A DNA stretch of 64,000 nucleotides from positions 2,208,001 to 2,272,000 of the forward strand of contig CM000154.2 in NCBI GenBank assembly GCA_000004695.1. The letters run 5' to 3'. The stretch comes from Dictyostelium discoideum (lineage: Eukaryota). The position numbers and the translations under genes were made by a program. The stretch's first letter is position 1; each line of letters opens with the position of its first letter. The notes under the pieces are model-generated. The model was not told the origin of the DNA. It saw only the letters and a list, made by a program, of their open reading frames with translations, and made no database searches. Below, one piece after another: positions 1,540 to 57,446 of the stretch.

Positions 1540-2312
1540 ATGAATAATTTTAGAAATTTAATTAATCAAAGTATTAGAAATTATTCAACAACAACAAATG
1601 TTGCAACTAAAACTAAAGTTTATGAATTAAAAACATATAATATTTTAGCAAATAATATTCCATCATTTTTTGAATTATTAGGAGAAAATAAAGGTTCAAA
1701 TAGTTTAGGTACTTGGGTAACTGAAATGGGTAGTTCAAATCAAGTTATTAGTTTAGTTGAACATGAAAGTTTAGATGACAGACAAATGAATGAATGGAAT
1801 ACTAAATTTCAATCAAAAGCAGCTAAATTAATTGAAAAACAAGAATCATTAATTCTTAGAGAATTCCCATGGGCACCATTTCAAAAGATTTCCAATGAAA
1901 AATCAAATGAAAATAAAGTTTGGGAATTAAGAACTTATCAATCCAAACCAGGTAAATTAGGTCAATGGGCCATCGATTTTACAACAGGTTTCGCTGAAAG
2001 AAAGAAAATCTCTGAACCAGTTGGTGTTTTCTATAGTGAATTCGGTCCTTTAAATACAATCGTTCATTTATGGCCATATAAAAGTTTTGAAGATAGATTT
2101 AGAATTAGAGATTTAGCTTTAAAAAATCCAGTTTGGTAAGAATAGAAAAAATAAAAAATAATAAAAAAATAAACTATAAAAGGAAATAATTTTTACTAAT
2201 AATTAAATAATTTTTTATAATAATATTATAAAATAGGGTTGAAACTGTTGCTAAAACAACTGCAAATTTAGATTCAATGGAAAGTAAAACTATTATTCCA
2301 GTAAAATTATAA
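1540..2312 (+). CDS. NIPSNAP-family protein, probably mitochondrial. Two exons: 1540..2135 and 2237..2312
   Basis: ATG at 1540 lies in frame with ORF-track ORF 1273..2139; the upstream poly-A encoded part is treated as non-coding. The protein carries the repeated YELRTY NIPSNAP motif (VYELKTYNI, VWELRTYQS) and an N-terminal presequence MNNFRNLINQSIRNYSTTT. A GTAAGA donor sits at 2136 and a TAG acceptor ends at 2236. Exon 2 encodes ...DSMESKTIIPVKL, which matches the conserved NIPSNAP C-terminus (human ...HMESRIMIPLKISPLQ). Confidence 0.8.
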
Positions 2313-2607
2313 ATTATTTCAAAATAAAATTATTAAATAGTAGAGAGTATTTGTGTTTTTTGCTATCTTAAACTATTTTTATTATTATTTTTTTTTTTAA
2401 CCAAAATTTATTAATAAATTTCCTTTTTTTTATACATATAATATTACATGAATTTATTTTTTATTTCTTTTCTTTTTTTTTTTCCTTTTTTTTTTTTTTT
2501 TTCTCTCTCTTTTCTCCTTTATTGTTTGTTTGCTGCTTCTAACTATAAATTTTATAAAAAAAAAGAAATTAATAAAATATTTTTGAAAAAATAAATGTTT
2601 GAATGAA

Positions 2608-3097
2608 TTAAAAAATTACTTTTTTAGATAAATCATCAACTCTTTGAGTTAATGCGGAAACTTCAGCTTTGAGATCAGCATTTTCTTGTTTTAATGCATC
2701 AACATCGATACCTAAAGAATTTCCAAGATGTTTTTTAATAAATCTGTAAAATAAATAAAAATAAAAATAAAGCTATTAATAATTTATATATATTATGATG
2801 TGATATATTTCTAATATTAAAAAATATTTTAATATTACTCTAATGCATCTGAAGGTTTATCAGATTCTTCGTATAAGCCAACAAGTACTTTAGTTAATGC
2901 ATCTATGACACCACTCTTTTCTAAATAACCTTTGAATTCTTCTTTTTCTGCTGAATTCTTCAAAAATTCAAATAAAAAAAGAAATTAAAATAATGAAAAA
3001 TGAGATTTAAAAAAAGAAAAAAAAAACAAGTAAAATAAAATAAAATAAAAATAATTTGATAAATTTAGACATTAGTAATTTTAAAACTTACTTGCAT
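2608..3097 (-). CDS. mycbp: c-Myc-binding protein (MYCBP/AMY-1) homolog. Three exons: 3097..3092 (ATGCAA micro-exon), 2960..2839, 2743..2608
   Basis: Manual minus-strand translation gives MQ/NSAEKEEFKGYLEKSGVIDALTKVLVGLYEESDKPSDALE/FIKKHLGNSLGIDVDALKQENADLKAEVSALTQRVDDLSKKVIF. This aligns closely with human MYCBP (…FRRYLEKSGVLDTLTKVLVALYEEPEKPNSALDFLKHHLG…). Donors are GTAAGT and GTAATA, acceptors are AG, and the phases are consistent (0/2/1+). A 6-nt first exon is typical of Dictyostelium. Confidence 0.75.
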
Positions 3098-3556
3098 GAT
3101 TTTAAATAGTCTTTATATATAATTGCGGGTATGAAATTTAAAAAAAAAAAGTTTTTTTTTTTTTTTTTTTTATTTTCAAAAAAAAAAAAAATCTAAAAAA
3201 AATAAAAAAAAAAAAAAATAAAAAAAAAAAAAAAAAAATTAATTAAACAATCCTTTTTTTAAAATTTTTTAAACATTCAAATTTGACTTTTAAAAAAGAA
3301 AAAAAAAAACATCAAAAGACTCCTACATCTAAAAAAATGATTAAAAAAAAAAAACTTTTCTCTAAATATTTTTTTATTCAATAATATTAAAAATAATAAT
3401 AAATAAAAAATAATAATTTTATTAAGAAAAAACAAATAATAGAATAAAGGTAAATAAAATTTTGAAAAATAAAACGAAAAAAAAAAAAAACAAAGAATAA
3501 GAATAATGGAAAAAAAAAAAATAGAAATTTTAAATTTTATTATATACATTTTTTTT

Positions 3557-3592
<36 letters not shown>

Positions 3593-3608
3593 GATAATCT
3601 TTTTTTCC

Positions 3609-6600
3609 TTAATCAGTTTCAACAGTTACATCACCACCAGTTCTCACAGGAGCACGAACTCTAAAAACTTTAACATATTCAGAGGTTTTAATATGATTTA
3701 GTGCTAAAGGTGTAACGAAAATATATTGTTTTGATCTATTTTCTTCAGCTTTTGACATTAAAAGATTGATAGAGATTGAACGATTTACTTCATCCATGAA
3801 AACATCGAATTCATCCATTGCACGGAAAGGACATTCCATATTCTCCCAGAAGGCCAATAATAATGATACAGTTGAGAAAGAACGTTCACCACCAGACAAA
3901 CCTTTGGTATCACCTTTGGCAGTACCATTTTGATTGGAAGGCAAAGCTTTTTGAAGTTCGACATTGATATCCAATTTACCATTTTGATGATCAAAAGTCA
4001 ACGAACCAGTGTAACCTTTCTTTGATAAGAAAATATTAAAGTATTGATCGGATCTACGAGAGATTGAAAGACGGAAACGTTGCCATTTCTTATAACGTTC
4101 ATTCAAATTTCTTTCCAATATGGTTGCCAATTCTTCAATGTTATCACGTTGCTCTGAAATCTCCTTGAGGGAATTATTTGCGTCTTGGAAAAGTTTCAAA
4201 GCTTCAGTTCTTGAACGTTTACCTCTGGACTCTTTCTCTAGTTGTTTTGTATATTGAATGATTTTATTGGTGAGTGTTGTATTGGTTTCATTGGTTGGTA
4301 TTTCAATACGTTCACAAATTTGAGTGGCTTTATCGGTTTTCTCTTTGACAATTTCTAAAATTCTTTGATATTCAGCTTTGAATTGATCTCTTTCTTGAGC
4401 ACTTCTACCTTGTTGTTGAAGCAATGCTTGTTTATTGTTATTGAGTTTTCTAAGACCTTCATTGAATTTTCTTAAATTATTTTCAATATTACCCAACTGA
4501 TTGGAAAGAACATCGATTTGATCATCCAATGCTCTGTTATTTTCAGCGAATGGTCCTTTTTGAGCGGCAACCTCAGTACGTTGAGCTTTTTGAATATTGA
4601 TCTCCTCATCCATTGATTTAATTTCCTCATCGAGTGAAGCTAAACCAATTTCCAACTCTGAATAATCATCAGTTTGTTGAACCAATGTATCTTCGATCGA
4701 TTTAATCTCATTAGTGATTTGTAGGATTTTACGAGAACATTGATTTTGATCTTGATCATTTTGACTGATTTTATGTTCAATGGCTTGAACATCACTACTC
4801 AATTCTTGTTCAATCTTTTTCTGTTGATTTAATGCTGGTAATTTCGATTCCATATCCCTTTGAGTACGTTGAATAGCAGCATCAGAATTTACACGTAACA
4901 TGGTGGCCTCACCAGAATTCTTTGCAGCTTGATAGAATGGATTACCACTCTTGGTTTTGGAATAATTGTTACCTTGTGGATCAAAGAATTGAGATAACCC
5001 ACGTGGACATCTATCAGTGTACAATACAGAATCAATCTCTTTACGATCATTACCCAACCCAATTTGTTCAACTTTTTTAGTATCAATTAAGAAATTAATA
5101 ATGAAATGAGAAGGTGAATCGAGAACACGTAACACTGTAGCTAAAGATGGATCCAATTCATCATGTTCCACAGTTTTATAGACTTCAGTGGTTTCGGGTA
5201 TTTTCGTATAATCAACTTTAATACCAAACTGATGACCCAGCTTTTGAAGGGTAATACCATCTGGAATGGAAAATACCAAAAAGTTTCTAAGTGTAGCCTT
5301 TGAGATTGCCGATTCAATAGCGAATGCCCAACTTTCATTCTTTATCTTTAAACTTAAACCAATGGGTCCAATGGGTAACTTTGAGAAATTACGACGACTT
5401 GCTTCAATTTTATGAAGAAAATCGGTCATACCTTTGCCATAGGCTTGATTTTCACCTTTTTGAGTTGATCTTAAATTGTTTAATTGTACTCTCAACCCTT
5501 CATACTCTCTATTCATCTGTTGGGTGATTGTACGTTGATTTTGATGATCTCTCTTTAAATTCTCTCTATCTCGCATTAGATCCTCTTTTTCTTTAATTAA
5601 TTCCTCCTTTCTTGCCTCCAATTGAAGTTTTTGTTGACCTTTCTTTTTAATCTCATCCAATTTCGATTGATTATTTGCCAATTGAGCATTTCTCTCTTTG
5701 ATTTCATTAATCGATTGAAGTTGAAGATGACGACGTTGTTTTCTTTGTTGTCTCTTTTTATTGTTTGCTTCAATTTGAGTTTGAATCTTTGCCTCTTCTC
5801 TTTCGATTGTCAATATCTCTCTATTGTTTGTCTCTTTCTTTTGTTCCTGTATTTTAATTTGATCTGTAAATTCTTTAATATCCTTTTTAATGTCTTCAAT
5901 TGATTTATTATATGTCTCAATGGTTTCATCAACTTTTCTAATATCATTATCAAAAGATCTCTCCTCTGCTTCTGCAACTTGTTTCTCTTTTCTCTTTGCT
6001 TCTCTCTCTGATTCAACAACAAAACTCCATGCTAATTGATTCTTAAATTCACTAATCTTTCTCTCTAATCCAACCATTTGTTGTAAATCTTTATATTCTT
6101 TATTATATTCTCTAACTTTTTTTTCTAATTCTTGAATTACCTATCATTTATTTTTAAAAAAAAATTAATAATAAAATTAATAATAAATAATAATTTTAAA
6201 AAAATTAAAAAATTAATTTTACTTACAACAACTTTTTGACTTAACATATCTTTAATTTTATCAATATGTTCTCTAATTGTTGTATAATCTTTGGTCATTT
6301 TATCTAATTGTGTTGCCATAAGGAATGATTTATATTTATCTTGTGGACCAGCAGAATTTAAGAATTGTCTACTGGTATCTTGAGTTAAAATTGACATTGG
6401 ATTATCAATTTGAATATTAAATTGTTCTAAAATCAATGATACATCATTAAATTTATCTGAAACCGTTTTACCATTATAATCTTTAACTTTATATCCACTT
6501 GAACCAGTTCTACTAATTCTTCTTTCAATAATAACTGATTTACCATATTTCTCTGGTTTAAATGCTTCTTGACCTTGATTTCTTAATTTAACTGTAATTA

Positions 6601-7007
6601 CTGCAGTACTTTATTTTTTTTTAAAAAAAAAAAAAAAAAAAAAAGTTAAAATAAAAAATAAATAAATAAATAAATAAAATATTAGTTAAATATATAATTT
6701 AAAAATTAAATAATTATATATACTCACTTTGTTTCAGCTTTTACTAAATCAGATAATTTACTACCTCTATTTGTAAAACCAGCTTTTGCACCTAAACAAA
6801 CGATTAATGCAATTAAAACTGCACTTTTACCACTACCATTTTCACCAGCAATAAAATTTACATTTGAACAGAAATCAAGTTTAAAATGACGATGACACAT
6901 GAAATTCTCCAATGTTATACTTTCTATGATACCAGCTTCAGGTTCTGTTACACCACTTTTCAATTGTTGTTCTCTTCTAACCGCCTCTCTTTCATCTTCA
7001 GAGTTAC

Positions 7008-7051
<44 letters not shown>

Positions 7052-7371
7052 CTACTACCACTATCACTTCCAGATGAATCCACATCCTCAACATCTTCAT
7101 CATCATCTTCACTTGAACCACTCTCTTCATCACTTGATTGAGCTTTTAATTTTTTTAATCTACCATTTGAAATTGGTTGTTGTTGTTGTTGTTGTTGGTG
7201 TTGCTTTGTTGGTGTCATTTGTTTTCCATTTTCAACTCTTTGTTGTTTATGTGGTCTATCTTGATCTTGTGTTGAATGAATTAATTCATCATCATCATCT
7301 TCTTCTTCTTCTTCTTCTTCTTCATCCAATTCGTGGGAATTTCCATCATGCCCTAACTTCCTCTTGGACAT
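3609..7371 (-). CDS. smc6: SMC6 (structural maintenance of chromosomes 6). Three exons: 7371..6728, 6608..6227, 6140..3609, about 1185 aa
   Basis: ORF-track ORFs 6724..7371 and 3609..6077 plus a hand-joined middle exon. Exon 1 has the Walker A motif [39 protein letters not shown] (human SMC6: [37 protein letters not shown]). The long coiled-coil arms and the C-terminal [19 protein letters not shown]…[17 protein letters not shown] are the SMC6-type signature/Walker B (human …PFRCLDEFDVYMD). A GTGAGT donor ends exon 1 in phase 2 and a GTAAGT donor follows …QKVVV. The N-terminus has an acidic poly-D/E and poly-Q extension. Confidence 0.85.
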
Positions 7372-7467
7372 AATTTATTTTTTTTATTTTTTTTTTTTAT
7401 TCCCAACAAAAATAATTATTTTCGTTATGAAATAGAAATTAAAATAAATAAATAAAAAAATAATTTT

Positions 7468-7484
7468 TATTTGCGCGCAAAAAA
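7468..7484. promoter_or_regulatory. E2F-like palindromic GC motif (TTTGCGCGCAAA) in the smc6 / Sec20-like divergent promoter
   Basis: This is the only GC-only 8-mer in a promoter that is otherwise nearly pure A/T, lying between smc6 (minus strand, ATG 7371) and the plus-strand gene starting at 7599. TTTSSCGC is the canonical E2F site, and here it is duplicated as a palindrome. The call rests on sequence match alone. Confidence 0.25.
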
Positions 7485-7598
7485 TTAAAAAAATAAAAAT
7501 TAAAAAAAAAAAAAAAATTATTATTGAAAAACTTAAAAAATGAAAAAAAAAAAAAAAAAAAAAATATAAAAATAATTTTTAACCCAAAACCACTTAAT

Positions 7599-8069
7599 AT
7601 GGAATCAATGAACAACCAAGAAATTTTAAATGGTACAATTGAATATGTTTCAAGATCAAGTAAATTATTAAAAAAAGTTTCTGATATTACAAAAGAGAAA
7701 ATTAAAGATTATCCATATTTAGATGATTTAACAGAAGAATATATTCAAGTATTTATTTAAATAATAAATATATATATTTTTTATTTTCATTTTTTTATTT
7801 TTTTTTTTATTTTTTTTTTTTTTATTTTTATTTTTTTTTTTTTTTTTTTTTATTTTTGGTGTATTAATATTTATTTACGTCAAGGCTCAACATTTATATG
7901 ATAGAACACCAAAATTATTAAAATTATTGAGCGAAATTAATATAACCGATGCCATCATCTCAAATGAAGTAATTGAAAATATAAATAATATGAAATATGA
8001 GTTGGATCATCTTATAGAATCTACCCAATTTAGAATCGATGATATAGATACCTATTTTAAAAGAGTAAT

Positions 8070-8110
<41 letters not shown>

Positions 8111-8529
8111 AATAAATAAAATAAAAATAATAATAATAAAAAAATTAATAATAATAAATCTAGGTCGAAACTGAATACTTTTTAAAAGATAAAAAAAATG
8201 AATTTTATGTTGAGTTATCTTCATACAATTCACAAATTCAAGATAGTTTAAAGAAGTTAAAATCAATTTATGATGGTGTAACTATTTATATATTATTATT
8301 TTTTTTTTTTTTTTTAATCATATTTATAAAAAAAAAAAATATTGACATATTGTTATTTAAATAGGGTAAACTATTAACAAAAGAGGTTAGTGAAATTAAT
8401 AGGAAAAAATTTAAAAATTCAGATAAAGTCCTAACTAAACATATCAACACAGGAATTGCACTTTTCATCATTTTAACATCACTTTTAGTTTATTTTATTC
8501 AATTTAAACCAAAAATATCACAAGATTAA
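7599..8529 (+). CDS. Tail-anchored membrane protein, probably Sec20/BNIP1-like. Four exons: 7599..7748, 7885..8064, 8164..8277, 8365..8529, about 203 aa
   Basis: The ATG at 7599 (MESMNNQEIL…) is preferred over the upstream poly-A-encoded M of the ORF track. All four exons are phase 0, with donors GTATTT, GTAATA and GTAACT and AG acceptors. The exon 2 frame is confirmed by ORF-track ORF 7927..8115. The C-terminus …YDGGKLLTKEVSEINRKKFKNSDKVLTKHINTGIALFIILTSLLVYFIQFKPKISQD is a single transmembrane anchor, and the segment before it resembles the Sec20 domain of BNIP1 (…LGRKLITKYNRRELTDKLLIFLALALF…). The family assignment is tentative. Confidence 0.45.
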
Positions 8530-8610
8530 TTTCCAAAGGAAAAAAAAAAAATAATAATAATAGAAAAATATAAATTACTATATACAATTTTATTTATTAT
8601 ATTTAACCAT

Positions 8611-9089
8611 TTAATTTTGTTGTTGTTTTAATTTTAAATTTTCAATTACTTTTAAAGATTCTTCAATATGAGAGGTGGCACTTAATAAAGCTGAATAAGT
8701 ATTAAGTATTTTACTATCGATATCAATGATAAATGTAGTTCTACCAGGTAATAATAAACCTTTTACGCCATAAGATTTTGCATTTTACCATCTTTATCAC
8801 TTAATAAAGTGAATGGTAATTTATATTTCTGTGAAAATTTTGAATGACTTTCAGAATCATCACAACTTATACCTATTACATCAACACCAGCATCTACGAA
8901 TTTTTCATATCTATCCCTAAATTCACATGCTTCTTTGGTGCAAACTGGTGTACCATCTTTACCATAGAAATATAATACAATTGGTTTTTTATTTATAAGA
9001 TCTTTTAATGTTACAATTTTACCATCTTTATCTGCACATGAAAATTCTGGGGCATAATCCCCAACATTTAATTTAATGGATTTTGTCAT
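8611..9089 (-). CDS. BCP/PrxQ-type peroxiredoxin (AhpC/TSA family) with an apparent 1-nt frameshift near 8766..8774
   Basis: ORF 8763..9089 encodes MTKSIKLNVGDYAPEF…VLYFYGKDGTPVCTKEAC…GVDVIGISCDDSESHSKFSQKYKLPFTLLSDKDGKMQNLMA*, with the peroxidatic Cys in the motif T-P-V-C-T-K-E. The conserved C-terminal half (YGVKGLLLPGRTTFIIDIDSKILNTYSALLSATSHIEESLKVIENLKLKQQQN*, stop at 8613..8611) continues in another frame directly downstream. It aligns to E. coli BCP …FGVWGEKSFMGKTYDGIHRISFLIDADGKIEHVF…. The join implies one T is missing in …AATCT(T)TATGGCGTA…. Confidence 0.7.
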
Positions 9090-9582
9090 TTTCTTAATTT
9101 TTATTTTTATATTTTTTATTTTATTTAAATTAATATTATTTTTTATTTATATATTTATTTATTTGTTTGTTTTATGGTTATTAAAAAAAAAAAAAAAGAT
9201 TTATTTAAATATCATTTTAAAAATAAAAATGAACGAAATCGAAAGTATTCCATTTTTTTAAAGAATAATGGAAATTTTTAATTTCATACCACTTCAAAGA
9301 AATCAGAAAATGAAAAAAAAAATAAAAAAAAATAAAAAAAAATAAAAAAAATAAAAAAAATAAAAAATATAAAAAAAAAAAGAAAAAAATCAAGAGAAAA
9401 TTATTGACCAACATTGTTATAATATATTATTATTATTATTATCATCCTTTTTTTTTTTTTTTTTTTTTTATTATTCCTTTTAATAAAAAAAAAAAAAAAA
9501 AAACTAACAAAATTTTTCTTTATTTTTATTGGGTGGCAAAACCTAACCCAAACTTTTTTTTTTAAAAAAATTTTTATTAACC

Positions 9583-9850
9583 CAACAAAATATTTGCAGC
9601 TGATATCCACGAATGACCAATCGTTTTTATTTTATTATTAATATCCACGAGCGACCAATCGTTTTTATTTTTTACCAAAAATACGAATAATATTATGATG
9701 AGGTTTAAAATTCATAGCAAAAAAAAAAAAATTCGATAAAGCCTAATGGTTATTTGATAATGATTTCCAAACATAATCATTGTATTGAGATTATTTTAAT
9801 GGGTGCTATATATCTATTTTTTTGATAATTTACTTTTGACCAACCAAATT
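9583..9850 (+). repeat. Paralogous non-coding promoter-like element, copy A
   Basis: Layout: CCCAACAAAATATTTGC, then a tandem pair ATATCCACGA(A/G)(T/C)GACCAATCGTTTTTATTTT (9601..9668), then a conserved distal block ATAATCATTGTATTGAGATTATTTTAATGGGTGCTATATATCTATTTTTTTGATAATTTACTTTTGACCAACCAAATT. That block has a TATA box followed by an oligo-dT stretch, as in Dictyostelium Pol II promoters. The same layout recurs about 2.9 kb away at 12478..12760. No ORF follows. Confidence 0.5.
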
Positions 9851-9856
9851 ACAAAA

Positions 9857-9888
<32 letters not shown>

Positions 9889-12392
9889 AAAAAAAAAATA
9901 ATAATAATAATAATATAAATAAAAAAATATCCTCCCAAACCTAAACAGTTTTGAAAATAAAAAAATTAAAAAAACAAAAAAAATATTAATAAAAATAGTA
10001 TTAATAAATTATTATATTAAATATAATCATAAAAATTAAAAAAAAAAAATAAAAAAAATAAAAAAATAAAAAAAAAGAATTTGAAAAAGACAATCAAAAA
10101 TGTATTTACGTAATTCTTTTTTTATATTATTGTATTTGGGTTTATAAAAAATAAAAATAAAAAACAATAAATAAGAGAAAAAAAAAAGTATTAATAAATT
10201 ATTATGTTAAACTGGAAATTTCAAAAAAAAAAGTATTTTGGGTCAAACTGAAAAAAATCAAAAAAAAAAAAAAAAATATTAAATTTATTTTTTCTCTATT
10301 TCTATTTTTAAAAAAATGGTGAAACTGAAATACTCCCATTAAGCAAGAATTGAAAGAACGAAACTCAATAGATTGGTAAAATACATAAATGGGTGGTCCT
10401 TGTTGCATTTTTGTGAAGACTTCCCCAAAAACAGGGTTTAATGGTTGGAAATTGGAGAGGATTTTATTAAAAAAAAAAAAAAATTATTAAAAAAAAAATG
10501 GAAAAAAAAAAGAATTTGAAAAAAAAAAAAAATTAAAAATGTATTTACCTATTATTCTTTTTTTCTTTTTTTATATCTCTACATATTATTGCATTATTTG
10601 GGTTTTAAAAAAAATAATAAAAATTAGTTTAGGAAAAAAAAAAAAATATATTATTATTTTTTTTTTTTAATAATAATAGTTTTTTTTTTTTTTTTGAGTT
10701 AAATTGTTATTAAAACTTTTATTAAGAAATATGGAGGAAAATTATAAAGATATTATTTATTATATGATTAAAATTTTATTTATTTTTTTAATTGGAAATT
10801 AAAAGAAAATTGAAAAAAATCAGGTAAAACATTATAAGTTGATTTGTTTTGATTTTTTTTTTTTTTTTTTTTAAATATCCCTTTTTTTTATTATTATCAG
10901 AGGAACATAAACAATCACAATTTCAAGATTATTTCTCTAAAAAATAATAATAATAATAATAGTTTTAAAAATTGTGTTAGTACTTTTTTATTCTTTTTTT
11001 TTATTTTTTTAGAGCCACAAAAAATCTAATAATTTTTTTAAAGGAATAATATCTTCTTGGTGGCTATTTTTCAATTAATTAATTTTAAAAAACCTGTGGG
11101 AAAAAAAAAGAAAGAAAAAAAAAAAAAGAATATAAATGTTAGTAGGACTAAAATTATAATCCAGAATAATTAAATCTTCTCATGTTGGAAAAGACAAAAA
11201 AAAAAAAAAAAAAAAAATAGTTTTTTTCTTTTTCTTTTTCTTTTTTTTACTTACCAAAAGGCATTAGAAATACAAATTGGTTGGACTTGAAACTTTTTAT
11301 TTATACTGAGAAAAAATAATAAAAAAAAAAAAAAAAAAAAGAAAATTTAAAAATAAAAAAAATAAAAAAATGATGTAACAATGGCATTATTACATTTACA
11401 AATTACATCATAACGTATTGTTATTTAACATTTAAATATTCTAATAATAAAAAAAAAAAAAAAATAAAAAAAAAAAACTAATATAAATATAAAAAAAAAA
11501 CCCCAGAGAAAGAAAATAGATTGATGAAAAAGAATAATCTTCTGTGTGTGTGTCTTTTTTGTTTTGAAATGATTTTTTGAAATTTCAATATTTTCATAAC
11601 CACCAACAAAAAAAAAAATATTATTTTAAAAATAAAATTTGTAGTGAACCCCACCACACACAAAAATAAACAAAAAACAACTAGATTTAGGACTGAACAA
11701 CACATAATAAATTTAGTATTACAAACCACAGATTTTATTCGAAACTAATTGTTTAAAAAGCAGTTATTTTATAAAAAAAAAAAAAAATTAAAATAATAAT
11801 AGTTATTATTAGTATAATTATTATTTTTATTATTTTCACTTTTGAATTACCTAATTGATTAACCCCTTTTTTTTTTATTTTTATAATAAAAAATTAAAAA
11901 AAATGAAAAAATGATTCCGGAAGTGATTTTTATGAATTACCAGTTTTGAGTGACTATGGGTATATTTAAAATGAAAAGTGGACTGTTTTTTTTTTTTTTT
12001 TTTTTTTAAAAAATTGTCTGAATTCTTTGTTTGAATTAAACTCAAGAAAACCTTTGATAATAAAGTAAAAAGGTGGATAAATTTTTTTTTTTCAATAATC
12101 AAAAAAAAAAAAAAAAAAAGGATACGACTAGTCAAAATTTAACAACATTACAATAAAATTGTTCAACCCATTTACGGGGTTAATTGATTTACGTTATATA
12201 ATTCCAATTTGAATAAAAGTGTTTATCGGTTCAATTATTAATAAAAATAAAAAAAAAAAGGCTTTTTAATAATATTATTAAATGAATTTGTGAATCTTTT
12301 TTTTTTTTTATTATTTTAATTATTAAATTTTAACAATTTCGTGACCACCATTAAAGCACCTGTGCAATAAGCAAATTAAAAAAAAAAATTTC

Positions 12393-12423
<31 letters not shown>

Positions 12424-12477
12424 CAAAAAAAAACAAAATTTAAATATATCAAAATGTGTGCCTATTTTTATAAATAT

Positions 12478-12760
12478 CCCCAACAAAATATTTGCTTATT
12501 TTTTTCATTATTTTTTTTTTTCCAGGCGAGCAACCAATGGTTTTTTATAATAATATACTAAAAATAAGAATAACAAATTGAGCTTTTTTTATTTTTTTTT
12601 TTTAATCATTATTTTTTATAGCGAAAAAAGTCGATACCGCTTAACTTTCAAAACAAAATAGTTAAAAAAATAATCATTGTATTCAAATTATTTTTAATGG
12701 GCACGTTATATATCTATTTTTTTGATAAATAACCTTTTACCAACCAAAATTATTATTTTT
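12478..12760 (+). repeat. Paralogous non-coding promoter-like element, copy B
   Basis: Layout: CCCCAACAAAATATTTGC, then CCAGGCGAGCAACCAATGGTTTTTT, then …ATAATCATTGTATTCAAATTATTTTTAATGGGCACGTTATATATCTATTTTTTTGATAAATAACCTTTTACCAACCAAAATT. This can be aligned to copy A across the head motif, the CCAAT-containing GC island and the TATA/oligo-T block. Confidence 0.5.
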
Positions 12761-14933
12761 TTTTTTTTTTTTCAAATTCCTTTTTTTTTTTTTTTTTTTT
12801 TTTTTTTCCCAACTGTCATTTGACAAAAATAACTATTTTTACTAAATTACAAAACAAAACAAAAAAAAAAAAAAAGCTTTTTTAAATTTTTTTTTTTTTT
12901 TTTTTATTTTTTTTTATTTTTTTTTTTTTTCCAAAAATTAATTTACCATTACCGCAATGGTACCAGTTGATTTTTATTTTTTTTTTATTCAAAAAAAAAT
13001 ATTAAAATAAAAAAAAAAATATTAAAATAAAAAAAAAAAAAAAAATAAAAAAAAAATGAAAATAAAAAAAAAAAACCACTTTTCCATGGTTTGAATTCAC
13101 ACACTTTCAAATTAATTTAATTGAGAATTCAAAATCTAGATATTTTTTAAATTTAAACGTTTAAAATTTAAACAAAATTATTTTTTATGACACGATGTGC
13201 TTCCTTTTAAGAAATGGTGGATGTTAAAAAATACTGAAATAAGATTCACAGATCTATATTATAGATTAATCCTAAAAACAAATAAATATAATGCGATGAA
13301 GCCTCACCAATATTAAAAAATGGGTTAGTTAGCCTCAATTAGTCGGGCATCCGTTTACCATCAATTATTTAAAACAAAACAAGATCTATCACTCACTTTA
13401 AATATAGGTTTGTAAATGAATTTAAAAGAATAAATTAAAATTTTTATTTTTTTTTTATTTTTATTTTATTTTTTTTTTTTTTTTCTAAAATAACACTATA
13501 AATTAAAAATTTTTTTTCATTATTATTTTTTTTTTTTCTAAAATAACAATCGATTATTTATTATTAAAAAAAAAAAAAAAAAATCAAAAAATAAAATAAA
13601 AAAAATCAAAAAAATAATAATAAAAATAATAATAATAAAAAAATAAAAATAAAATAAGGGATTAGGAAAAAAAAAAAAAAAAAAAAAAAATTTTTAAAAA
13701 AGATCTTTTTTTTTTTTAAAATTCCCCCCGCTCATTATAAATATTGTATATAAAAAACCAAAAAAAAAAAAACCATCAAAAAAATAATAAAAATAATAAT
13801 AATAAAAAAAATATTCTTAATAATTTTCTAAAAAAAAAAAAAAATAAAAACACCAATAATAATAATAATAATACACACACTTTTTTTTTTTTAATAACGA
13901 AAATCAAAAAAAAAAAAAAAAAAATATCTTTTTTTGCCAATACTCGAAAGCTTTTAAAAATAACAAAAGAAGTTTGGTAAGTTTTTTTTTTTTATTTTAA
14001 TTTTTTTTTAATTTAATTTTTTTTTTATTTTTTATTTTATTTTTTTTTTTTTTAATTTTTTTTTTTTTCATTCTTCGCAGCCAAAATAATGGCAAATCTC
14101 CAAAATAATTTGACCGTTTTTTTGGATATTTTTTACGATTTCCCACCTTGGAGACATTATTGTCACAATGTTTTTTTTTTAAAAAATTAGCGAGCAGCCC
14201 AAATGTTTTTTTAAGTGCAAATCATGTGATAACTGTATCCAATGGCGTTGTTTCTTTTTTTTTTTAGATATGTAAAGCAAAGCCACTGCTTATTGTTTTT
14301 TTTTTCTTTTTTTTTTTTTTTTTGATTTTTTTTTTTTTGTGCGCAGCCTCCTCGCCAATAAAAAAATTTTAAATTTAATTTTAATTTTTTAAAATATCCA
14401 TAGTTTATTCTTTTTTCTTTTTTTTTTTTTTTTTTTTTTTTATTTTTATATTTTTTTTTTTTTTTCTTTTTTTTATTTTTTTGATAATCCATAAATTGTT
14501 ATACGCTTTATTTTTTTATTTAAAAAATAATAATAAAAATCTACCTATATAATATATAATATATAATAAAATAAATTAGATTGTGTTTTTTTTTTTTCTT
14601 TTTTAAAAATTTAATAATAATAATTTATTACAAATCAATTAAATATTTTTATTATTAAACATTATAAATAATATAAAATTTTATTAAATTAATTATTTAT
14701 ACACCTTTCGTTTTTTAATTATAACACATATAACTTCATTCTTAAATATATTTTTTTTATTATAATTTTAAAAAAAAAAAAATAAATAATATAAAAACTT
14801 TTTTTTTTTTTTAAACAAAAATAATCACAACTGTTTTTTTAAATTTTATATATATATTATAAAAAATAAAAAACAAAAAAAAAAATTAAAAAAAATAAAA
14901 ACTTCAAAAACCCTTGATCTGCATTCACAAATA

Positions 14934-14966
14934 TCACCCACCCACACATACACACACAAACCCTTA
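14934..14966. promoter_or_regulatory. C/A-rich element (CACCCACCCACACATACACACACAAACCC) upstream of the cyclin-like gene
   Basis: A conspicuous CA/GT-rich island about 630 bp upstream of the ATG at 15594. A second ACACACACACC sits at 15131..15141. These resemble the G-box / C-rich elements bound by the G-box binding factor in Dictyostelium developmental promoters. Confidence 0.3.
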
Positions 14967-15593
14967 CCATAGACATTTTTTATTTCACCTTTTATTTTTT
15001 ACACTTTTTAAAATTTAAAAAAGCCATTTTTTTTATTTTTTTTATTTTTTTTTCTTTTGCAAAACAATTACAATTTCCTATTTATTTGTAATTGACCTTA
15101 ACAGTTTGATATACTGAGAATATCATTTCATAAAAAAACACACACACACCGATCTATAAAAAAAAAAAAAAAAAAAAAAAAACCTACAATTATTTTTTTA
15201 TTTTTTTTCCAAATTTATATAAACTTTTTTTTGTTTTTTTATTTTTGAAACAAAACATCTTCCAGTTTTTTTTTTTTTAATTTTTTTAATTTAATTTTTC
15301 AAATTAATTTAAAAAGACCCAATCAAATTCCATTATTTCCCCACACCTTTCAAATTAATACCATATATAAAATAATTTTTCTTTTTTGTGTAGTTTAACT
15401 TGTTACAATTTGTGCAAACATATATTAATTAAAAAATAATTTTTTTTTTTTTTTTGCATCACCAATCCAAAAATAGTAATAATACCTCATTAGTCGTTAA
15501 TTTAAATTTTTTAATAATATAATATAATATAATATAATTAATTAATAATATAAATAAAAAAAGAAAAATAAAAAAATAAATAAAATAAAAAAA

Positions 15594-57373: not shown

Positions 57374-57446
57374 GGGGATGTAGCTCAGATGGTAGAGCGC
57401 TCGCTTAGCATGCGAGAGGTAAAGGGATCGATACCCTTCTTCTCCA
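57374..57446 (+). tRNA. tRNA-Ala (anticodon AGC) with an atypical T-loop, followed by a T8 terminator
   Basis: The sequence GGGGATGTAGCTCAGATGGTAGAGCGCTCGCTTAGCATGCGAGAGGTAAAGGGATCGATACCCTTCTTCTCCA folds as a cloverleaf. The acceptor stem GGGGATG/CTTCTCC includes the G3:U70 Ala identity pair, the A-box reads TAGCTCAGATGGTAGAG, and the anticodon loop is CTTAGCATG (AGC at 57407..57409). The T-arm is AAGGG-ATCGATA-CCCTT, so position 54 is A rather than T and the B-box (GGGATCGATACC) deviates from GGTTCGANTCC. TTTTTTTT at 57447..57454 is a Pol III terminator. Confidence 0.75.

Follow-up and report, generated by a model that had tools for sequence, protein, structure and literature searches.

The window analyzed here is a stretch of 64,000 nucleotides of Dictyostelium discoideum, in which we observe, on the minus strand, an ATG at position 9089 that opens a 108-codon AhpC/TSA frame ending in LSDKDGKMQNLMA at a premature TAA (ORF list, translation). 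The Pfam AhpC-TSA profile matches this open reading frame (ORF) with an E value of 2.5e-33 and 115 bits, over profile positions 1-95 of 124. The C-terminal third of the protein is encoded in the -1 frame, as a sequence-only reading of this DNA had claimed; translation there yields NAKSYGVKGLLLPGRTTFIIDIDSKILNTYSALLSATSHIEESLKVIENLKLKQQQN up to the stop at 8613-8611, free of further stops. With the two frames joined, the repaired protein has 159 residues and the AhpC-TSA match rises to 136 bits (E 6.7e-40, positions 1-121 of 124), with PDB entry 3DRN matched at an E value of 7.5e-39 over residues 8-154. With intact Dictyostelium orthologues, the repaired protein shares 92-97% identity, and the match is therefore far beyond chance. 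In tblastn, the C-terminal remnant shows 56/56 identity to the same frame in another D. discoideum assembly (L001, GCA_054883475.1) and about 93% identity to intact alleles. Taken together, both frames, Pfam, and orthologue homology on each side of the break uphold the central claim of the sequence-only reading, namely, a PrxQ/BCP-type peroxiredoxin gene (here, prx) with a single-nucleotide frameshift (Table 1). A further copy of the peroxiredoxin gene was looked for within the window and not found.

Table 1. Features of the interrupted peroxiredoxin gene, in window coordinates
Feature	Position	Strand	Basis or remark
Truncated ORF: 102 ancestral codons, six out-of-frame codons (MQNLMA), TAA at 8765-8763	8763..9089	-	ORF list, translation, Pfam E 2.5e-33
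1-nt deletion site: ancestral ATT (Ile103) to AT, one T of the TT pair by 8782 lost	8781..8782	-	DNA alignments A1 and A2, column list, codon table
C-terminal remnant: ancestral residues 104-159 and stop 8613-8611, in the -1 frame, outside the ATG frame	8611..8780	-	Translation, tblastn
Peroxidatic Cys50 codon	8940..8942	-	Sequence; C50 an invariant column in alignment A3
Resolving Cys55 codon (CTKEAC)	8927-8925	-	Sequence; C55 an invariant column in A3
Gly43 codon GGT, at the near-universal Pro position of PxxxTxxC	8961..8963	-	Motif count
Catalytic Arg117 codon (PGRTTF), out of frame 3' of the deletion	8740..8742	-	Invariant A3 column; aligns with the Arg of LPARITF in 3DRN
29-nt GT..AG stretch excised in GenBank model ACTFIT_000841 (149 aa)	8760..8788	-	Annotation artefact; aligns base for base with orthologue coding sequence
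C-terminal poly-Gln (CAA) tract	8614-8628		Q3 in the window and L001, Q5 in L005, Q7 in L004

The DNA alignments place the break precisely, with a single gap that reduces the Ile103 codon, ATT or ATA in the relatives, to AT in the window, between AAAAT and GCAAAA beside 8782. The sequence-only reading had taken all 108 codons for an intact N terminus; this is correct for the 102 ancestral codons and incorrect for the last six residues, which are already out of frame. Its proposed repair, one extra T in AATCT_TATGGC, has to be abandoned, as alignments A1 and A2 put the true gap 10 nt upstream, in the Ile103 codon. A T inserted at AATCT_TATGGC gives GKMQNLYGV, where every intact relative reads GKIAKSYGV, and this repair site was rejected.

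The neighbor of prx in the window is a 202-aa gene of four exons (7600-8529, plus strand) that homology search and cluster listing identify as identical to UniProt Q54I54, DDB_G0288997 of AX4. Across relatives, this locus (locus A) has the order prx, DDB_G0288997 orthologue, and an SMC-like gene of ~1180 aa. Comparison with orthologues in other Dictyostelium genomes, which the sequence-only reading had recommended, reveals an intact gene at the same locus in D. discoideum ACTFIR (L004, 163 aa), D. discoideum ACTFIW (L005, 161 aa), and D. dimigraforme (L003, 160 aa), all reading DKDGKIAKSYGVKG. The intact D. citrinum and D. dimigraforme relatives found with the repaired protein (92-94% identity) both show DKDGKIAKSYGVKG as well. 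The two intact D. discoideum alleles (ACTFIR_001794 and ACTFIW_007886) diverge from the window by 3.5-4% and presumably represent the wild isolates CR116C and OT3A. They share the locus and its neighbors with the window gene, at 14-15 substitutions per 479 nt and 96.9% protein identity, and differ from it in having ATT at codon 103, T124 and G126 instead of the window's I124 and S126, and a longer poly-Gln tail.

Locus A is in other states in the remaining genomes. The window (NC4-derived lineage) and L001 carry the same 1-nt deletion. In D. cf. discoideum ACTFIZ (L007; GCA_054859235.1, 5040-5560), the start position lacks an ATG, one nucleotide is deleted, 16 nt are inserted, and PGRTTF carries a Gly-to-Cys change, with the lesions replacing the beta-strand and loop immediately before the active site. 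In D. cf. discoideum ACTFIY (L006; GCA_054859205.1, 4900-5100), a deletion of ~710 nt has taken the promoter and the first ~415 nt of the coding sequence, leaving the 3' end, while D. citrinum (L008) has a ~68-nt remnant only and D. firmibasis (L009) has nothing. Judged from these sequences, the locus A copy has decayed independently in the two "D. cf. discoideum" genomes, with only a remnant left in D. citrinum. The GenBank model ACTFIZ_003377 (L007, 5051-8984) is chimeric, with a distant 5' exon borrowed as start codon for the decayed copy.

With respect to the second D. discoideum assembly, not only the deletion but the whole 479-nt gene is identical to that of the window. Over 12.5 kb, however, 88 alignment columns differ (46 substitutions and 42 gap columns), which marks L001 as a separate assembly; the differences are mostly homopolymer lengths and SNP-like sites, plus a cluster at 10.3-13.7 kb. 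Based on 100% identity over 3.8 kb of neighboring coding sequence, we infer L001 to represent AX2-214 and the window to belong to the same NC4-derived lineage. L001 is an independent sequencing of essentially this lineage and not an independent wild isolate. The project behind GCA_054883475.1 produced de novo Nanopore and Illumina assemblies of AX2-214, wild D. discoideum CR116C and OT3A, the possible cryptic species M4B and S6B, three D. citrinum strains, D. dimigraformum, and D. intermedium (PMC12745789). Within the difference cluster, the sites fall at 10364-10501 and 11441-13728, with GGGGGG versus GAGAGA at 13724-13728 and several A/G and T/C sites; this could reflect poor sequence quality in one of the assemblies or an element that is variable or repeated.

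The sequence-only reading had left the choice between a pseudogene and a base-call error. The evidence favors the first option, the separate assembly having exactly the same deletion. An error of base calling or assembly in the reference, with an intact ORF of ~160 aa as the real gene, would agree with a single missing base being the commonest type of sequence error and with a gene that is otherwise pristine, its downstream frame lacking stops and its dN/dS against an intact allele being 0.10. However, the Nanopore and Illumina de novo assembly has the same deletion yet differs from the window elsewhere, at homopolymers and SNP-like sites; the lesion sits in a TT pair and not in a long homopolymer; and the annotation of GCA_054883475.1 invents a 29-nt intron to obtain a protein. 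An error is not credible since the same one-base loss from a TT pair is found in two assemblies from different data, and we regard a base-call error as a very unlikely cause of the frame break. The extra T by which such an error would have been recognized was searched for at the level of the independent assembly, and L001 does not show it.

The annotated intron itself merits consideration, since splicing of 8788..8760 would give the 149-aa protein of ACTFIT_000841, a model placed at 6001-6479 of L001: GT..AG borders are present (gtaaaatg...gtaaaag), the excision restores the frame, and the deposited annotation uses them. Nevertheless, it would remove KIAKSYGVKG, including the nearly invariant G108 and V109, and indeed the protein of this model (P0003) reads LSDKDG followed directly by LLLPGR, skipping exactly these residues. 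The 29-nt stretch has 31% G+C and aligns as exon, codons 101-111, in every intact orthologue, in agreement with the earlier view that a short intron is unable to explain the break. It is also far shorter than the introns of DDB_G0288997 (136, 99, and 87 nt) and than the D. discoideum mean of 146 nt (PMC3188802). We give splicing hardly any credence.

Just as improbable is a full-length product made by programmed -1 ribosomal frameshifting or transcriptional slippage. The shift required is indeed -1, and the frame to be entered is open from 26 nt ahead of the zero-frame stop, with an AAAA run at the start of the overlap; these 26 nt (GTAAAATGCAAAATCTTATGGCGTAA), however, contain no slippery heptamer of the form X XXY YYZ, and their homopolymers are all A4, a length insufficient for polymerase slippage. 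Moreover, the frameshift is not conserved. Every intact relative is read in one uninterrupted frame, the nearest of them through flanks that match those of the window, which identifies the break as a new mutation and not a conserved recoding signal.

Peroxiredoxins have an active site composed of Pro, Thr, and Cys together with a distal Arg. In the window gene, the Thr-x-x-Cys element is present as T47-P-V-C50, with C50 and T51 invariant in alignment A3, and the resolving Cys follows five residues on (C50-TKEA-C55), in the CxxxxC arrangement typical of many PrxQ/BCP proteins. The conserved catalytic Arg is absent from the ATG-frame product, the R117 codon lying downstream of both the frameshift and the premature stop. 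In a 56-sequence alignment, the lost part holds the invariant or nearly invariant G108, V109, P115, G116, R117, T119, D123, H141, and E144, and in the AlphaFold model of the D. citrinum orthologue (pLDDT 87.4) it comprises H102-106, E118-122, E127-133, and H140-164. Because Arg117 and two core beta-strands are missing, the 108-aa product should be inactive and is probably unstable. A functional shortened redox protein is the remaining reading of this product, which keeps Thr47, Cys50, Cys55, and about two thirds of the domain; given that the invariant Arg117, two central-sheet strands, and the C-terminal helix are missing from it, that no such architecture is reported as a natural form among 5171 hits, and that the short models seen are decayed copies, there is next to no chance of its being correct.

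Compared with the PrxQ/BCP family at large (PF00578; Sulfolobus solfataricus Bcp1 3DRN, E. coli BCP), the gene shares the Thr-x-x-Cys center, the CTKEAC motif, the Arg of PGRTTF, and the thioredoxin-fold order of secondary structure. It differs in its broken frame, which leaves Arg117 and the C-terminal third unmade, and, along with the whole Dictyostelium subfamily, in having Gly for Pro. The Pro of PxxxTxxC is replaced by Gly43 in FYGKDGTPVC; Pro occupies this position in 125 of 137 homologues, both D. discoideum paralogues among them, and Gly in 10, which are exactly this Dictyostelium subfamily (P0001, P0002, P0004, and P0121-P0126 among its members). Although the Gly43 subfamily lacks the near-universal Pro, its intact members are under purifying selection, with dN/dS of ~0.1, which makes the Gly-for-Pro variant a small lead for peroxiredoxin enzymology.

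The intact copies show pairwise dN/dS values of 0.09-0.13 (Nei-Gojobori), and such purifying selection argues that the gene was functional before the lesion. When changes on the window lineage are polarized with outgroups, the branch has 3 synonymous, 0 non-synonymous, and one ambiguous change upstream of the break, and, downstream, two changes of each kind, the non-synonymous ones being T124I and G126S. These are the only unambiguously derived non-synonymous changes on this lineage, both being 3' of the frameshift. Downstream dN/dS is 0.28 versus 0.056 upstream, from 4 and 10 differences, respectively; for the whole gene against an intact allele, it is still 0.10, with a branch total of 2 non-synonymous versus 5 synonymous changes. 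This pattern of substitutions fits a recent lesion followed by relaxed constraint, with counts too small for a test and a loss of function that the pattern by itself does not prove.

We further observe a second site, locus B, with the order WASP-like gene, psmD12, prx, a gene of ~1050 aa, and UQ_con (L002, L010, and L011; positions 2100-11700), where D. firmibasis, D. dimigraforme, and D. citrinum each have an intact prx. Of the two loci, B is probably the older. A neighbor-joining tree of the A-locus and B-locus copies is too poorly resolved to date the origin of locus A, and our claim is accordingly limited to the sharing of locus B with D. firmibasis. No annotated protein of the discoideum clade is recorded for locus B, nor does D. 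discoideum have a recorded protein of the more divergent P0004 type, so that the lab lineage appears to be without a working member of the Gly43 subfamily. An exact-sequence look-up of the 108-aa ORF in a collection of 15 billion proteins gave no match, with no AX4 protein for locus A, indicating that no annotation, AX4 included, calls this ORF. AX4 does keep two canonical PrxQ paralogues, EAL67458 (152 aa) and EAL69628 (198 aa), whose cluster representatives are 71% and 63% identical, with the CTKEAC motif and the ...SHIEESLKVIE.LK C terminus in common. Unlike the window gene, both are intact, have the active-site Pro (FYPKD), and lie on other chromosome-sized contigs, with EAL69628 having an N-terminal hydrophobic extension.

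All of this makes it highly probable that, in the lineage from which the D. discoideum lab strains come, a PrxQ/BCP-type peroxiredoxin has become a young unitary pseudogene through a germline loss-of-function allele. The proposed course is that deletion of a T from the ATT of Ile103 would send translation from the ATG through six wrong codons into the TAA, giving a 108-residue product that would keep the peroxidatic and resolving Cys and lose Arg117, the two central beta-strands, and the C-terminal helix. The loss is probably tolerated because the gene belongs to a small family in which two canonical PrxQ paralogues remain; the locus A copy has been lost independently in sister lineages as well. 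In this respect, the allele resembles other single-frameshift unitary pseudogenes, with one disabling indel, an intact syntenic orthologue nearby, paralogues left, and parallel losses in sister lineages. It differs from them in nothing unusual; the window allele is very young, with no second disabling lesion so far. The window pseudogene is lineage-specific, recent, and that of a redundant or dispensable paralogue, and hence ordinary in kind. Our search of the literature found nothing relevant on a described Dictyostelium peroxiredoxin pseudogene.

Assignment to a young pseudogene settles the frame break as biological and not a reference error, and it flags two misleading GenBank models, ACTFIT_000841 with its 29-nt pseudo-intron and the chimeric ACTFIZ_003377. 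It also means that the standard lab lineage is without a working copy of a peroxiredoxin that is still present in wild isolates of the same provisional species, and this difference between lab and wild alleles may bear on comparisons of oxidative-stress phenotypes. A bolder reading, which we hold to be rather unlikely, is that the Gly43 PrxQ subfamily is a neofunctionalized redox protein of group-4 dictyostelids, under strong purifying selection yet discarded at least three times independently at locus A in the discoideum clade. If this were true, the loss could be conditionally neutral or even favored, and AX2 and AX4, as NC4-derived strains, would amount to natural knock-outs for the entire subfamily and deviate from wild D. 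discoideum in some trait of oxidative stress or redox signaling.

Two further features of the window lie outside the gene. The ~6 kb upstream of it (9100-15100) has no called gene in three assemblies and no ORF of at least 90 aa except one of low complexity, making it an unusually long AT-rich gap; the D. discoideum genome has about one gene per 2.5 kb. The sole tRNA gene of the window is a tRNA-Ala (AGC) at 57374-57446 on the plus strand.
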